Positions 6,945 to 35,552 of a DNA stretch of 64,000 nucleotides are shown in pieces (the stretch's first letter is position 1; each line of letters opens with the position of its first letter). This DNA comes from Candidatus Omnitrophota bacterium (GTDB taxonomy: Bacteria > Omnitrophota > Gorgyraeia > Zapsychrales > Zapsychraceae): the NCBI GenBank assembly GCA_029261065.1, contig JAJDCB010000012.1, positions 77,430 to 141,429 on the forward strand, read 5' to 3'. The translations under genes and the position numbers were made by a program. The notes beneath the pieces were generated by a model. The model searched no databases, was not told the DNA's origin, and saw nothing but the letters and a program-made list of their open reading frames with translations.

Positions 6945-7361
6945 TTATTTTCTCTTTGCAGCCTTTTTCTTAGTTGCTTTTTTCTTTGCAGCTTTCTTCT
7001 TTGTTGCTTTCTTCTTTGTTGCTTTCTTCTTTGTTGCTTTCTTCTTTGTTGCTTTTTTCTTTGCTGCTTTTTTCTTTGTTGCTTTCTTCTTAGTTGTTTT
7101 CTTTTTAGCAGCTTTTTTCTTTGCTTTTCTTTTACCACCGCGAACCATCTTAGCGCAAGAGATGTCACCGTTTTTATCTATAAAGTAGAGAAACCCAGCT
7201 TCTTTTTTGATTCCAACCTTTGCTACTTTTTTAGGTTTTCCCCCTTTTTTATTTCCACGAGCCATCTGTGCACAAGAAATGTCGCCAGCTTTGTCTACGA
7301 AGTAAAGGTATCCCTTTTGCTTCTTGATTCCTACTTTAGCAACTTTCTTAGCCATATGCAT
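6945..7361 (-). CDS. Histone H1-like lysine/alanine-rich DNA-binding protein. The N-terminus is a duplicated ~35-aa domain.
   Basis: Two copies of a KKVAKVGIKK-GYLYF-DK-GDISCA-M domain, then a KKKAT/KKKAA tail encoded by 15-bp tandem repeats (6960-7110). Confidence 0.6.
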   Translation of the reverse strand: MHMAKKVAKVGIKKQKGYLYFVDKAGDISCAQMARGNKKGGKPKKVAKVGIKKEAGFLYFIDKNGDISCAKMVRGGKRKAKKKAAKKKTTKKKATKKKAAKKKATKKKATKKKATKKKATKKKAAKKKATKKKAAKRK

Positions 7362-7404: not shown

Positions 7405-7429
7405 TGTCATTCCTCCGGAAGCGGGAATC
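7405..7429. repeat. Family A dRS3-like palindromic repeat unit (solo arm)
   Basis: gtcattcctccggaagcgggaatc matches the ATTCC(C)-N8-GGGAAT core seen at seven other loci. Confidence 0.6.
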
Positions 7430-24513: not shown

Positions 24514-25506
24514 TTAATCTTCAATTAGCTTTTCAGCAATTTGAATAGCATTTAAGGCCGCCCCTTTACGAAGATTGTCAGAAACAATCCATAAGTTAAG
24601 GCCGTTGGTGATAGATTCATCTTCACGAATCCGTCCTACGTAAGTATCATCTTTACCTGTGGCGTCTAAGGGGCAGGGATATTTATTATTGTTTAAATCA
24701 TCGATGACTGTCACCCCTGGCGCTTGAGAGAGAAGTTCAAGGGCTTCTTCGCGTGTAATTTTTAGAGCGGTTTCAATGTTGACCGATTCGCTGTGAGCAC
24801 GAAGGACAGGGACGCGCACACATGTGGCCGAAACGCCAATCTTTTCATCGTGCAGAATTTTCTGAGTTTCTTGAACCATTTTCATCTCTTCTTTGGTATA
24901 TAAATTAGGTTGGGGCACATCGATTTGAGGAATCATGTTGCGAAAAATTTGATATGGAAAAGCGTTAACCGTCAAATCCCCTTTTTCTTGATTCTCTAAT
25001 TCTTTTATTGCCGCTCCCCCCGCTCCTGAGACAGATTGATAAGTAGAAACAACAATCCGCTTGATTCTAGAGAAATCATACAAAGGTTTTAGAGCTACTA
25101 TCATTTGAATGGTTGAACAGTTTGGATTGGCGATAATGCCTTTGTGTTTTTTGATATCTTCCGGATTGACTTCAGGGATAACTAAAGGAACATCTTTGTC
25201 CATACGAAATTGACTGGTGTTATCAATAACAACGCAGCCTTGTTGAACAGCCAGTGGTGCAAAGATTTTACTAACAGCCGCACCTGGTGAAAATAATCCA
25301 ATTTGCACACCTTTAAATTTTTCTAAAGCATTCTCTTCTGTCAATTTTTCATATAACAATCCATCAATTTCTTTTTCATCTACATCAAGACTAGTAGAAA
25401 ATAAACGTAATTGATCGACAGGAAAGTTTCGTTCTTTTAATATTTGAAGCATCTCTTGGCCGACCGCGCCGCGGACACCTACTATAGCTACATTATATTT
25501 TGTCAT
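24514..25506 (-). CDS. asd: Aspartate-semialdehyde dehydrogenase
   Basis: 330 aa. VAIVGVRGAVG NAD motif, catalytic NPNCSTI Cys motif. Confidence 0.9.
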   Translation of the reverse strand: MTKYNVAIVGVRGAVGQEMLQILKERNFPVDQLRLFSTSLDVDEKEIDGLLYEKLTEENALEKFKGVQIGLFSPGAAVSKIFAPLAVQQGCVVIDNTSQFRMDKDVPLVIPEVNPEDIKKHKGIIANPNCSTIQMIVALKPLYDFSRIKRIVVSTYQSVSGAGGAAIKELENQEKGDLTVNAFPYQIFRNMIPQIDVPQPNLYTKEEMKMVQETQKILHDEKIGVSATCVRVPVLRAHSESVNIETALKITREEALELLSQAPGVTVIDDLNNNKYPCPLDATGKDDTYVGRIREDESITNGLNLWIVSDNLRKGAALNAIQIAEKLIED

Positions 25507-25525
25507 AATTGATTACCTCGTATTT

Positions 25526-25994
25526 AGTGGTAGAGTGCTAGAGTGATAAAGTGATAGTTAGGTTCTTATGTTTTTTATTAATCCGTTTAACATCATTCCA
25601 ACTTCGTTGGAATGTTCGTATAAAGAAGTACAGTTTTCTTCTGATAAATAATGAAGATCTTTGCTTAATAAAAGGTGGTATTTTGTTTCTTCCAATGATC
25701 CTTGGGCAATATTTAAGAATCGAAGAAAATCTTTTGTTGAGTTTTTGTATCCTTCAACAATATTAGCACATACCGAAATCGATGATCTTCTGATCTGACT
25801 CGTCAAACCAAATCGTTCATCGCTAGGAAAATATTTTGTCATTCGATAAATCTCAAGCACAAGCGCATGTCCTTTCTCCCAAACCAATAAATCCTCAAAT
25901 GTTCTAATTCTCATGTATTTTCTCCATTTTTACCGGGGAAGTAGTCGTCGGGATTTTTCTTAATTATTATCACTTTATCACTTTACCACTAATT
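25526..25994. mobile_element. Family B terminal-inverted-repeat element carrying a single ORF
   Basis: The left end gtggtagagtgctagagtgataaagtgata and the right end tatcactttatcactttaccac form inverted repeats. The same ends flank an ORF-less 145-bp element at 32272-32416. Confidence 0.6.
25558..25914 (-). CDS. Four-helix-bundle protein of the 23S rRNA intervening-sequence protein / Avd family (PF05635-like)
   Basis: 118 aa. DL-VW-K...IY..T..FP..E-FGLTSQ-RR-S-S...NI-EG...S-K-F--FL-IA-GS--E matches the family pattern. Confidence 0.7.
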   Translation of the reverse strand: MRIRTFEDLLVWEKGHALVLEIYRMTKYFPSDERFGLTSQIRRSSISVCANIVEGYKNSTKDFLRFLNIAQGSLEETKYHLLLSKDLHYLSEENCTSLYEHSNEVGMMLNGLIKNIRT

Positions 25995-27123
25995 AAATAT
26001 ATTCTAATACCATATCCCCAATCTCATTCGTTGAATATCCCATTTCGCCAACAAGCATCGATTTCATTTTTTTAATGGTTTCTTTGATTCCTACTTCAAT
26101 ATCATTGGCGGCTTGAGTTTCTCCTAAATGAGTCAACATCATTTGAGCTGTGATAATGGCAGCGATTGGATTAATTACATTTTTTCCAGCAAAGGCAGGT
26201 GCTGTTCCATGAACGGGTTCGAACATGCTTACCCCCTTTGGATTAATGTTTCCACTTGGAGCAACCCCCATCCCCCCTTGTGTGACAGCGGCGAGATCGG
26301 TAATGATGTCACCAAACATATTTCCAGTAACAATGACATCGTAACGTTCAGGGCTTTCAATCATATAAATACAACAAGCATCGACATGCACATAGTCAGG
26401 TGCAATATTAGGATAATCTTTGGCGACTTCATGAAAGATGCGATCCCAAAGGTCGAAGACATACGTTAGGACATTTGTTTTTCCGCATAACGTTAACTTG
26501 CCAATGTAGCCTTTTGATTTTTCTTCCTCTGATAACCCAGCCCAAGGTTGATCTTTATGTCGTTTTTGTGTGCATTCAAAAGCATAACGCAAACATCTCT
26601 CAACTTGTTCCCTGGAATAAACCATGGATTGAATTGCAACTTCGTTGGCCTCACCCTTATTTTGAAATTCACCAACGCCGGTATAAAGGCCACCGGTATT
26701 TTCGCGAACAACAATATAGTCGATATGTTTGGTTGTTTTATTTTTGATAGGTGTTTCTACGTTTTCATAAAGTTTTACAGGGCGTAAATTGATGTAGAGA
26801 TCTAAATCAAATCGTAATTTTAAAAGAATCCCTTTTTCAAGGATTCCTGGTTTGACATCAGGATGACCAATACCTCCAAGATAAATAGCATCAAAATTTT
26901 TAAGCGTATTGACCTCTTCATCAGATAAGATTTCGCCCGTTTTTAGATAGCGCTCGCCTCCAAAAGGAAATTCGGTAGTCTCAATTTTAAATTGATGTTT
27001 TTGGCTTGAGGCTGCTAAGACTTTTAATCCTTCATCTATAACTTCGCGACCAATGCCATCGCCTGGTATGACAGCTATTTTGTATGTATTCATAGAGTTA
27101 TCCTTCACGTGTGGTTTAAGCAC
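25993..27123 (-). CDS. Isocitrate/3-isopropylmalate/tartrate dehydrogenase family enzyme (LeuB-like)
   Basis: 376 aa. [13 protein letters not shown] start and [12 protein letters not shown] motif of the beta-decarboxylating dehydrogenase family. The substrate cannot be assigned. Confidence 0.7.
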
Positions 27124-30715: not shown

Positions 30716-30748
30716 TTGAAAGTCCTTATAGTTAGTTTGCTAGCAAGA

Positions 30749-30917
30749 ATAACCAAGGTACAAGATAACAAGATACAAAAAAGAAACAATACCCAATTAC
30801 AAATAACCAAATAGTTTGATTATTTAGCTTTTGGAGATTGATTATTTTTTGCCAAAGCGTCAAGAGACGCTGGTTCGGCCATAGGCCGAATATCTTGTAT
30901 CTTGTACCTTGGTTATT
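30749..30917. repeat. Family C MITE-like element with ~27-bp terminal inverted repeats
   Basis: The left end is aataaccaaggtacaagataacaagatac and the right end atatcttgtatcttgtaccttggttatt. An internal ttcggccataggccgaa palindrome is present. A related element lies at 34975-35175. Confidence 0.7.
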
Positions 30918-32271: not shown

Positions 32272-32416
32272 ATTAGTGATAGAGTGGTAAAGTGATATAG
32301 CTGATTGTGTGGAAGTTAGTGATAGTTTTTATCTATTGGGAAAAATTTTTTTCTCTACCAACAAGTTTATATCTAACCTACCACTAAACCACTTTATCAC
32401 TCTATCACTATTTTCC
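32272..32416. repeat. Family B MITE, ORF-less (hairpin-forming)
   Basis: gattagtgatagagtggtaaagtgatatag ... ccactaaaccactttatcactctatcactat inverted ends. Confidence 0.7.
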
Positions 32417-34504: not shown

Positions 34505-34978
34505 ATGATTATTCAAGAAAGAAAAGTGGCTCCAAATTTTAACCTTTCTGCCAGTAATGGCCAAGAAGTGAGTCTTAAAGATTATAAGGGTAAAAAGAAT
34601 GTTGTTCTTTATTTCTATCCTAAAGATGACACCCCAGGATGCACAACGCAAGCGTGTGGATTTCGGGATGAGATTAAAGCCATTGAGAAAAAAGATACGA
34701 TTGTTTTAGGTGTTAGTCCTGATAAGATTAGTAAACATGAAAAGTTTATCGCGAAACATGACCTTCCTTTTCTTCTTTTAAGTGATGAAGAAAAAAAGGT
34801 TTGTGAGTTGTATGGGGTTTGGGTTGAGAAAAGTATGTATGGCCGAAAATATATGGGGGTTGCGCGTACGACGTTTGTGATTGATATGAAAGGTAAGGTT
34901 GTTAAAATTTTTGAAAAGGTTAAGCCGAAGGTTCATTCTGGGCAGATTGTTGAATGTTTGAATACGCTGAGAGAATAA
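34505..34978 (+). CDS. bcp: Peroxiredoxin Bcp/PrxQ
   Basis: 157 aa. YFYPKDDTPGCTTQACGF peroxidatic/resolving Cys motif. Confidence 0.85.
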   Translation: MIIQERKVAPNFNLSASNGQEVSLKDYKGKKNVVLYFYPKDDTPGCTTQACGFRDEIKAIEKKDTIVLGVSPDKISKHEKFIAKHDLPFLLLSDEEKKVCELYGVWVEKSMYGRKYMGVARTTFVIDMKGKVVKIFEKVKPKVHSGQIVECLNTLRE

Positions 34979-35175
34979 CCAAGTAACAAGATATCCCGCT
35001 TTTAGCGGGACCAAGGCAAGAAATCCCGGCCTTTGGCCGTGACCTCGGCGTCTTTCGCTGCCGGGCAAAAAAAATTCAAAAATCAAAATACAATATTCAA
35101 ACGTTTGGTTATTTAGTTATTGGTTATTGTTTCTTTTTTGTAACTTGTTATCTTGTACCTTGGGATTTCTTGCCC
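34975..35175. repeat. Family C MITE-like element
   Basis: aataaccaagtaacaagata ... gttatcttgtaccttgg inverted ends, with nested hairpins cccgcttttagcggg and ggcaagaaatccc/gggatttcttgcc. Confidence 0.6.
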
Positions 35176-35552
35176 TTATCTTGAAACACCCAATCCAATG
35201 CCGCAACCTTCTCCGGCCAATAATACATTCTCGATCGTAATATCTCCCCCGTCTCTTTATGAATCACCACCAAATACCCCGTAAAATCCATATTCACATC
35301 CACGGTAAAATCAACAAACCAATAATCAGGATACTTTAACGCATGTTTATCTTCTCGGAGTTTGGGCTCCAAGGCTTGAAAGTAGCGGTTATAAGGTGCA
35401 TTTTCTAATTCGTTAACAGCCATATCAACGGCCTCGTAACGATTCACACCATTGGCTAAATTGATCATATCTAATTTTTTATTTTCGAAATAAGAACATC
35501 CGTTGAGAATAAGGCTGCAGGTTATTAGTAAATAGCATATTCGATATTGCAT
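35148..35552 (-). CDS. Small lipoprotein, paralog 1
   Basis: 134 aa. Lipobox LILNGC. Shares the YWFVDF...YLVVI-KE-G-I...WP...LDWVFQ motif with the adjacent gene. Confidence 0.6.
   Translation of the reverse strand: MQYRICYLLITCSLILNGCSYFENKKLDMINLANGVNRYEAVDMAVNELENAPYNRYFQALEPKLREDKHALKYPDYWFVDFTVDVNMDFTGYLVVIHKETGEILRSRMYYWPEKVAALDWVFQDKGKKSQGTR

Follow-up and report, generated by a model that had tools for sequence, protein, structure and literature searches.

A 64,000-nucleotide (nt) stretch of a Candidatus Omnitrophota genome (contig JAJDCB010000012.1, positions 77,430 to 141,429; hereafter the window) carries a 469-bp cassette at 25524–25992, in which a gene of the PF05635 four-helix-bundle family lies between two inverted arrays of a short tandem repeat. 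The cassette takes up the whole spacer between an isocitrate/isopropylmalate-dehydrogenase-family gene (Iso_dh) and the aspartate-semialdehyde dehydrogenase gene asd. Inverted short-repeat arms of this kind are a property of the PF05635 family across many phyla. The window element is an ordinary member of a class, and the interest lies in the class-wide rule, which is testable in Xanthomonas. Our preferred reading from the sequences compared here, which we judge an evenly balanced proposition, is that the cassette is the counterpart, in an mRNA operon, of the open reading frame (ORF)-bearing intervening sequences (IVSs) of 23S ribosomal RNA (rRNA), that is, a promoter-less unit that would be gained and lost as a whole and whose arms would loop out the ORF. 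An earlier note on this DNA had placed such a gene in an element resembling a miniature inverted-repeat transposable element (MITE); what it observed is confirmed with one correction, the tandem octamer build of the arms, and its interpretation is partly supported.

Anatomy of the cassette

The 118-amino-acid (aa) product of the ORF matches PF05635 (23S_rRNA_IVP) with an E-value of 7.9e-40 and 135.8 bits against a cut-off of 33.8, bearing out the family that the earlier note had proposed, and the alignment spans profile positions 1–106 of 106; its score against TIGR02436 (NCBIfam 'four helix bundle protein') is 132.4 bits, with a cut-off of 24. All 21 columns that are invariant among 30 homologues are kept in the window protein, as is the motif RxxxSxxxNxxE (R43, S47, N51 and E54), whose residues are invariant or nearly so in the same set. 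A longer form of the family motif is GxxRxxxSxxxNxxE (PMC3936711), the first position of which is Q40 rather than G in the window protein and is likewise not G in XCC0516 of Xanthomonas campestris. XCC0516 (PDB entry 2GSC, E 2.5e-18) and 2RLD (E 3e-9) are the nearest solved relatives; both entries hold five chains, and a pentamer was described by Lin et al. 2006, as that work is cited in PMC3936711 and PMC4990558. The best-named relatives of the protein, and of the neighbouring asd product, are from Candidatus Omnitrophota, and the identical protein is on record in one NCBI contig and one Logan assembly. The family is large, with 22,171 clusters at 50% identity matching at E up to 0.001. Structures of PF05635 proteins have been solved, and we know of no established role for the family outside diversity-generating retroelements (DGRs). 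Among its representatives, P0365 (389 aa), P0366 (382 aa) and P0392 (354 aa) are three times as long as usual and carry the PF05635 domain N-terminally; they may be genuine fusion proteins or, alternatively, the outcome of gene calling that ran past the 3′ arm into the following gene.

By repeat search, we found inverted repeats of 29 nt at 25521–25549 and 25967–25995 that are 86% complementary, or 91% in a 23-nt register. The earlier note had described terminal inverted repeats (TIRs) of about 30 bp, and the complementarity of the ends indeed holds; Tandem Repeats Finder and a pattern search revealed, however, that the ends are not unique TIRs, each arm being a tandem array of the octamer AGTGRTAR or its complement, with four units at 25526–25557 and three in reverse complement at 25967–25990. 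The window has 12 matches to a two-unit AGTGRTAR pattern, where 0.04 would be expected, and these are confined to three loci. The build is compact (Table 1): the 5′ arm begins one base past the Iso_dh stop codon (25993–25995), and the first base of the 3′ arm directly follows the ORF stop codon, with its end lying 17 nt before the asd ATG and leaving the asd Shine–Dalgarno (SD) sequence (GAGG, 25516–25519) intact. No promoter-like site was found upstream of the ORF on its strand, and the cassette has no terminator-like site. In the predicted minimum-energy fold of the 511-nt read-through RNA, the ORF is enclosed by a 21-bp stem of the arms, and the arms alone are predicted to fold into 24 bp at −29.4 kcal/mol, in agreement with the long transcript stem that had been expected.

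The arms are a family-wide feature

Searching one genome per species for three AGTGRTAR units gave at least 117 loci, in Elusimicrobia, Omnitrophota, Planctomycetota, Bacteroidota and other phyla; by megablast, none of the 117 listed overlaps the window. Among the matches listed, the family profile identified eight PF05635 ORFs at these loci, and at least six of the eight are closely preceded by a GTGAT-type array and closely followed by its complement.

We also selected loci by protein, taking 80 metagenome loci whose products are 43–60% identical to the window protein, and analysed the 60 that have full 150-nt flanks. At 53 of these 60, the upstream flank and the reverse complement of the downstream flank have at least three seven-mers in common (median 8), and the mean number shared is 9.0 within loci against 1.6 across loci. 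The threshold of three is loose, being reached by 37% of control pairs of equal spacing elsewhere in the same contigs; at eight or more shared seven-mers the figures are 53% of cassettes and 2.4% of controls, and this stricter comparison is to be preferred. The arrays in this sample have a period of 7 (50 arrays) or 8 (10 arrays). Their unit varies by locus (AGGAGTT, CAGAAGA, TAGTAGC, TAGGCAT, CAGCCGT, AGTGATA and others), and both arms of one locus agree. Under a strict single alignment, clean arm pairs of at least 18 nt had a median length of 31.5 nt, and across a 71-locus set the aligned arms are 88% complementary overall. Four loci with the same build lie on viral contigs. Nearly all flanks in the protein-selected sample are coding, and the sample therefore contains no true rRNA IVS. 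A literature search, which reached few papers in subscription journals, turned up none that reports flanking tandem-repeat arms as a general companion of PF05635 genes.

Loci with more similar proteins tend to have more similar units, a loose but significant correlation. A Mantel comparison gave r 0.16, with none of 2000 permutations as high, on pairwise identities that come from local alignments, a few of which are inflated where truncated ORFs such as L100, L163 and L181 are involved. In 22 of 56 cases a locus has repeat 6-mers in common with its nearest neighbour by protein, compared with a background of 7.6%.

Polarity, orientation and composition

The two arms differ in composition in a fixed order. 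In 42 of 47 well-aligned loci the 5′ arm is the purine-rich one (p 2e-8), and in 43 of the 47 it has more G than C. Similarly, of the adjacent pairs formed by 193 GTGATA-type arrays at a spacing of up to 600 nt, 39 run purine-then-pyrimidine and none the reverse. As an inverted pair reads purine-then-pyrimidine on both strands, this polarity is a property of the element and not of the direction of the ORF, and we rejected purine asymmetry as evidence on ORF orientation. The interiors of the adjacent GTGATA pairs fall into two size classes, of 6–149 nt (36 pairs, too small for the ORF) and of 404–453 nt (three pairs, all with a PF05635 ORF). Orientation can instead be read from the neighbouring genes: the ORF shares its strand with the gene upstream in 26 of 29 loci and with the gene downstream in 32 of 34.

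In about half of the loci the units of the 5′ arm are SD-like. The 4-mers GGAG, GAGG and AGGA average 3.35 per 80 nt upstream of the ORF and 0.48 downstream, and the 3′ arm is correspondingly anti-SD-like, so that pairing of the arms would hide the ribosome-binding site of the ORF. The clade of the window protein has GTGRTA-type arms plus a separate leader hairpin, in which a C-tract (UCCCC) pairs with the G-rich SD just before the AUG. This hairpin is strong in six of seven close relatives, with z of −1.6 to −4.4 in five of L199, L201, L203, L205, L012 and L093, and is weak in the window copy, where the C-rich tract UUCCCC of the leader has a weak predicted pairing with the SD.

The G+C content at third codon positions (GC3) of the PF05635 ORF is below that of its operon neighbours in seven of seven hosts. 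The difference is small in the window (0.28 against 0.31, or 0.03 lower) and 0.15–0.30 in the six others: L012 (0.40 against 0.63–0.68), L201 (0.23 against 0.51 and 0.55), L199 (0.29 against 0.44 and 0.46), L203 (0.28 against 0.48 and 0.49), L205 (0.28 against 0.49 and 0.55) and the Xanthomonas locus L206 (0.65 against 0.82 and 0.85). The offset is seen even in Xanthomonas, where the whole genus has kept the cassette.

Gain, loss and spread

The closest homologues of the window protein, 62–67% identical, are co-oriented within other operons: between argD and argF (L199), between ilvB and ilvN (L201 and L202), after guaA (L203) and between a LacI-type gene and mnmG (L205). All have arms with a GTGRTA core, at a period of 7, 8 or 9. 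Four closer relatives (Asd 76–79% identical) share the order fabG/acpP/fabF/Iso_dh/asd/truA/rplM/rpsI/argC on the recovered portions of their contigs, and their Iso_dh|asd spacers differ in content. The spacer is empty in two of them (10 nt in L213 and 15 nt in L211), and holds a 99-nt ORF-less hairpin with one GTGATA unit per side in L212 (263–361) and an unrelated 182-nt filler in L210. In the distant Omnitrophota genome L012 (Asd 52% identical, 51% G+C), a full cassette with AGTGGTAA arms occupies the same spacer. The alternatives are an ancient cassette in L012 with several losses, or two separate entries into the same spacer; the low GC3 of the L012 ORF would favour a later arrival.

The interior motif of the L212 hairpin (CGTAATGTCG ... 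CGACATxTCGACAT) recurs in an ORF-less GTGATA hairpin at L020 5545–5695, in the same genome, which suggests a true multi-copy family with a conserved interior. In Omnitrophota JANQMA, GTGATA-armed hairpins at L037 7625–7840 and L049 1610–1815 hold a nested inverted pair of another unit (AGGTTAA and AGAGGTAA types), an arrangement that could result from insertion of one element into the loop of a second.

The earlier note had further suggested that the family travels on a small non-autonomous MITE-like element. Joint travel of family and arms has strong comparative support, in the arms of 53 of 60 relatives, the GTGRTA-core arms in different operons, the two empty syntenic sites and the low GC3. 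The small size (469 bp), the arms of 86–91% complementarity and the presence of three family loci in 64 kb are also MITE features, but 'MITE-like TIRs' misdescribes arms that are arrays of 7–8-nt units in a fixed purine-to-pyrimidine order. To call the element 'non-autonomous' is to make an assumption, since propagation could depend on the very protein that it encodes, and the labels 'MITE', 'non-autonomous' and 'RNase III' are all unproven for this cassette.

Interpretation and alternatives

The likeness to rRNA IVSs builds on the anatomy of the cassette, its generality, its co-orientation within operons, its presence or absence at the Iso_dh|asd site among relatives and its low GC3, all of which we count as established. 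On this reading, the cassette would be transcribed by read-through from the host operon and, once the 3′ arm has been transcribed, the arms would pair into a stem of about 24 bp with the ORF looped out. By analogy with rRNA IVSs, RNase III would cut the double-stranded stem, and cleavage would free the ORF mRNA and separate the upstream and downstream cistrons. Arms and ORF together would form the unit that is gained, lost and spread, and the ORF-less hairpins with the same arms would be its relatives or derivatives.

Several results weigh against this account. Only about two thirds of loci (48 of 74) give a clean arm alignment. ORF-less GTGATA pairs outnumber ORF-bearing ones 36 to 3, which means that arms can occur where the gene is absent. 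In the aligned arms of 71 loci, transitions that pairing of the sense RNA would tolerate numbered 58 and those tolerated only in the antisense 54 (p 0.78); with no wobble bias, the complementarity of the arms could be kept at the DNA level. Duplex energies were no more decisive, with the sense strand more stable in 31 loci and the antisense in 28, the 150-nt flanks giving large non-specific energies. The strict polarity of the ends (39 versus 0; 42 versus 5) is expected with defined ends and tells against a purely RNA-level account. In L012 the ORF identity of 62% is like that of its neighbours (52–76%), so that the cassette could be an ancient resident and turnover at the Iso_dh|asd site may be slow. 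Finally, no target-site duplication is evident when the filled site is set against the empty sites of L211 and L213, spacers too diverged for base-by-base alignment, and no transposase or other mobility enzyme was noticed in the 64-kb window.

The lack of wobble bias and the polarity of the ends fit a DNA-level mobile element, in which the arrays would be ends for a trans-acting recombinase or transposase, or for the encoded protein, the RNA stem would be a by-product, and the complementarity would stem from the making or repair of DNA ends rather than from RNA folding. The related cassettes in different operons together with the empty sites, the GC3 of the ORF below that of its neighbours, and the nested hairpins of other unit types in L037 and L049 also agree with such an element. 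We nonetheless consider it unlikely. Besides the missing target-site duplication and transposase, which count here too, the unit changes greatly among proteins that are 50–60% identical, unlike ends read by a conserved enzyme, and the near-universal co-orientation with host genes points to a dependence on host transcription.

Quite doubtful, in our view, is that the arrays are binding sites in RNA or DNA for the encoded protein itself, a PF05635 homopentamer taking one unit per subunit, much as TRAP does on GAG repeats, with translational autoregulation or assembly of a nucleoprotein complex as the outcome. The five chains of 2GSC and 2RLD and the pentamer attributed to Lin et al. 2006 (by citation in PMC3936711 and PMC4990558) would suit such a role, as would the roughly 3–6 units per array and the many 5′ arms that hold the SD or start codon of the ORF, among them that of XCC0516, whose start appears to lie inside the second heptamer. 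Close relatives, moreover, keep the GTGRTA core while the period varies between 7, 8 and 9, which suggests a sequence reader rather than mere pairing. Against it, the units vary widely among proteins whose surface motifs are conserved, and ORF-less arrays are abundant, also at loci with no PF05635 gene nearby.

Host intercistronic hairpins, arising by slippage to stabilize or punctuate mRNA in the manner of repetitive extragenic palindromic (REP) sequences and bacterial interspersed mosaic elements (BIMEs), could conceivably have taken in the ORF as a passenger that lodges or survives inside them. The predominance of ORF-less pairs (36 of 39) would follow, and so would the several unit families found in one genome (CAAGATA and AGTGRTAR in the window) and the 70–75 inverted GGGAATC pairs of Xanthomonas that are conserved between species (PMC4692102). 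Such hairpins would leave unexplained why arrays flank 53 of 60 PF05635 genes, why arm type tracks the protein lineage over genomes and operons and why the GC3 of the ORF is below that of its neighbours, and we regard a passenger gene as improbable.

That the gene is a remnant or accessory gene of a DGR is scarcely credible at this locus: the window protein barely reaches the bAvd profile (PF22296, 42 bits against a cut-off of 40) and weakly matches the PHROG 'Avd protein of DGR', but it scores 45.1 bits on the DivGenRetAVD equivalog NF033474, below the cut-off of 80; a Pfam scan of the 20 ORFs of 90 aa or longer in the interval 14.6–35.5 kb assigned 18 to housekeeping families and two to none, with no reverse transcriptase (RT) among them; the region from 15 to 37 kb has, apart from the octamer arrays and REP-like units, no direct repeats of 30 nt or more that could form a template repeat/variable repeat (TR/VR) pair; and relatives, too, stand alone within housekeeping operons. 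We therefore excluded a DGR remnant here, as the earlier note had done.

The DNA-level element, the protein-binding arrays and the host hairpins are not mutually exclusive. A broader proposal, which we think unlikely, is that PF05635 genes and inverted arrays of 7–8-nt units make up one widespread self-perpetuating class, whose pentamer would recognize, maintain or help to generate its own arms. Possible routes would be recognition of one unit per subunit, or templated addition or repair of repeats with a polymerase or RT as partner. If this were so, a single mechanism would have given rise to ORF-bearing 23S rRNA IVSs, to the heptamer arrays of Xanthomonas and Nostoc and to the ORF-less intercistronic hairpins in Omnitrophota, Elusimicrobia and Planctomycetota.

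The function and origin of the 23S rRNA IVSs and of their 'S23p' ORF have been a standing question since the early 1990s. If most members of the family share the cassette, an intercistronic element is the general form and rRNA IVSs are one special case of it, a gene can be paired with the inverted heptamer arrays of Xanthomonas, and the question can be tested in a tractable organism, at accB–XCC0516–accC, with a protein of known structure. For annotation, it matters that cassettes split housekeeping operons (accBC, ilvBN, argDF and Iso_dh–asd) and may affect the expression of those genes.

The host operon and other repeats in the window

About 30 kb around the cassette form a single co-directional housekeeping block, with the cassette on the strand of its neighbours. 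The gene order is argH-argG-argF-argD-argB-argJ-argC-rpsI-rplM-truA-asd-[cassette]-Iso_dh-fabF-acpP-fabG-fxsA-folK-folB-SDR-folE (SDR, short-chain dehydrogenase/reductase), in which asd, rplM, rpsI, acpP and fabG are named by synteny with annotated relatives and by the names of homologues. Insertion in the same orientation within a housekeeping operon, between asd and a gene that had been called leuB-like and that belongs to the Iso_dh family, was therefore correctly recognized. Across the window, an Rfam scan gave no family at its gathering score and a tRNA scan gave none; PADLOC gave no defence-system match.

Table 1 Coordinates of the cassette parts, the flanking host genes and the related repeat elements in the window
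Feature	Position	Strand	Remarks
Solo array, about four AGTGRTAR units	16124..16154	-	argH|argG spacer
Downstream host gene, aspartate-semialdehyde dehydrogenase (asd)	24514..25506	-	
3′ arm	25524..25557	-	Sense strand CTATCACT TTATCACT CTAGCACT CTACCACT AA: four complementary octamers
PF05635/TIGR02436 four-helix-bundle gene	25558..25914	-	118 aa
Leader	25915..25966	-	52 nt; the ORF's own SD GGAG at 25925-25922, 7 nt before ATG
5′ arm	25967..25992	-	Sense strand TT AGTGGTAA AGTGATAA AGTGATAA: three octamers, purine-rich
Upstream host gene, isocitrate/isopropylmalate-dehydrogenase family (Iso_dh)	25993..27123	-	
ORF-less hairpin, AGTGRTAR family	32272..32416	.	Arms 32275-32297 (AGTGRTAR x3) and 32387-32409 (complement), 89-nt interior

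Two further loci of the AGTGRTAR family had been reported in the window, and both were recovered. The ORF-less hairpin has a predicted folding energy of −51.7 kcal/mol (z −6.8) over 32275–32409 and lies between the divergent folE and PHP-domain genes. What had been taken for a partial copy near 16121–16161 is the solo array; its partner arm is a single unit (16062–16070), which sits in the loop of a GC-rich palindrome doublet, and the palindrome of this doublet differs from the AGTGRTAR repeat.

A second repeat family is present in the ORF-less hairpins at 30744–30915 and 34975–35180, whose arms are heptamer-type units (CAAGATA or ACCAAGGTA) and their complement. The former lies between folB and the SDR gene (−77 kcal/mol, z −11.8) and the latter between a convergent AhpC-family gene and an ORF without an assigned family; the arms run purine-then-pyrimidine, as in the AGTGRTAR elements. 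A REP-like GC-rich 23-mer (GTCRTYCCCGCGRAAGCGGGRAT) occurs 10 times in the window against 0 expected. It forms three inverted doublets, at 16033–16055/16093–16115, 17372–17394/17426–17448 and 35971–35993/36019–36041, which resemble REPINs (PMC3116915), and single copies at 7406, 12532, 38729 and 53986. The cassette leader holds ATCCCGACGAC, which resembles the GTCRTYCCCGCGRAAGCGGGRAT unit minus its central hairpin. At 6949–7123, among overlapping ORFs, a 15-nt tandem repeat (TTTCTTCTTTGTTGC) runs for 11.7 copies with 83% matches and may encode a pentapeptide repeat.

Comparison with known systems

The Avd proteins of DGRs (bAvd), which are pentamers, belong to a homologous four-helix-bundle fold family. 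The window gene differs from Avd systems in that it stands alone in a housekeeping operon, with neither RT nor TR/VR found, and scores under the Avd equivalog cut-off.

The closest likeness is to the ORF-bearing 23S rRNA IVSs of Leptospira and Coxiella burnetii (PMC4990558), which likewise hold a PF05635 gene ('S23p') in the loop of an element of similar size (about 430–470 nt for the two systems together). In C. burnetii the terminal inverted repeats of the IVS form a 28-bp stem, which RNase III cuts at the first of the two or three tandem heptamers (GACAGAT) that immediately precede the ORF; the G+C content of this IVS is below that of the genome (PMC4990558). The window cassette matches this design in its terminal inverted repeats, with a stem of 24–28 bp across the two systems (predicted in the window), and in the tandem purine-rich 7–8-nt repeats of its 5′ arm just before the ORF (AGTGRTAA three times at 25967–25990), as well as in its co-orientation with the host transcription unit, a G+C content below that of the host and a sporadic distribution. 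The two differ in their host, which in the window is an mRNA operon (the Iso_dh|asd spacer) and not helix 9, 25 or 45 of 23S rRNA, and in the state of the gene, which is decaying in Coxiella but in the window comes with a good SD and conserved residues. Excision by RNase III has been demonstrated for rRNA IVSs and is a prediction for the window cassette. Other settings for the family have been reported: a survey of bacteria of the candidate phyla radiation found such ORFs in insertions of 16S as well as 23S rRNA (PMC11270868), and members are wedged between cas genes, for example between cmr3 and cmr2 (Zhang et al. 2013, PMC3936711).

The arms themselves resemble the GGGAATC arrays of Xanthomonas and the GGGGAYT arrays of Nostoc, of which the 70–75 convergent intergenic pairs of Xanthomonas are conserved between species and have no known function (Rehm et al. 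2015, PMC4692102); that paper treats the heptamer arrays as G-quadruplex repeats and does not mention PF05635 or XCC0516. In both cases units of about 7 nt are arranged in tandem in intergenic positions that are conserved in related species, often as convergent, hairpin-capable pairs that run G-rich then C-rich. The window unit differs in being an octamer (period 8) that is not prone to form G-quadruplexes, and the purine-then-pyrimidine order is common to both. The short tandemly repeated repetitive (STRR) heptamers of cyanobacteria are comparable repeats of about 7 nt. In Xanthomonas the two phenomena meet, as the XCC0516 orthologues (L206–L209, locus coordinates 1925–2372) lie between accB and accC, co-oriented, with GGGAATC-type heptamers upstream and their complement downstream; the units of the two arms correspond one to one, apart from each seventh base. 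Judged by the residue numbers in 2GSC, the XCC0516 start codon appears to fall inside the second heptamer of the 5′ arm.

Hairpin MITEs that are co-transcribed with operons include the Correia elements or Neisseria miniature insertion sequences (NEMIS), the enterobacterial repetitive intergenic consensus (ERIC) or intergenic repeat units (IRU), and the REP/BIME/REPIN group. Correia elements are cut by RNase III and have TA duplications, and REPINs have a known transposase, RAYT. All are, as here, small multi-copy intergenic inverted-repeat elements that are transcribed with their neighbours and present or absent between strains. They have unique-sequence TIRs or palindromes and no ORF, whereas the class to which the window cassette belongs has tandem arms of variable unit, a fixed purine-to-pyrimidine order and, in its full-length form, a conserved gene that does not encode a transposase.

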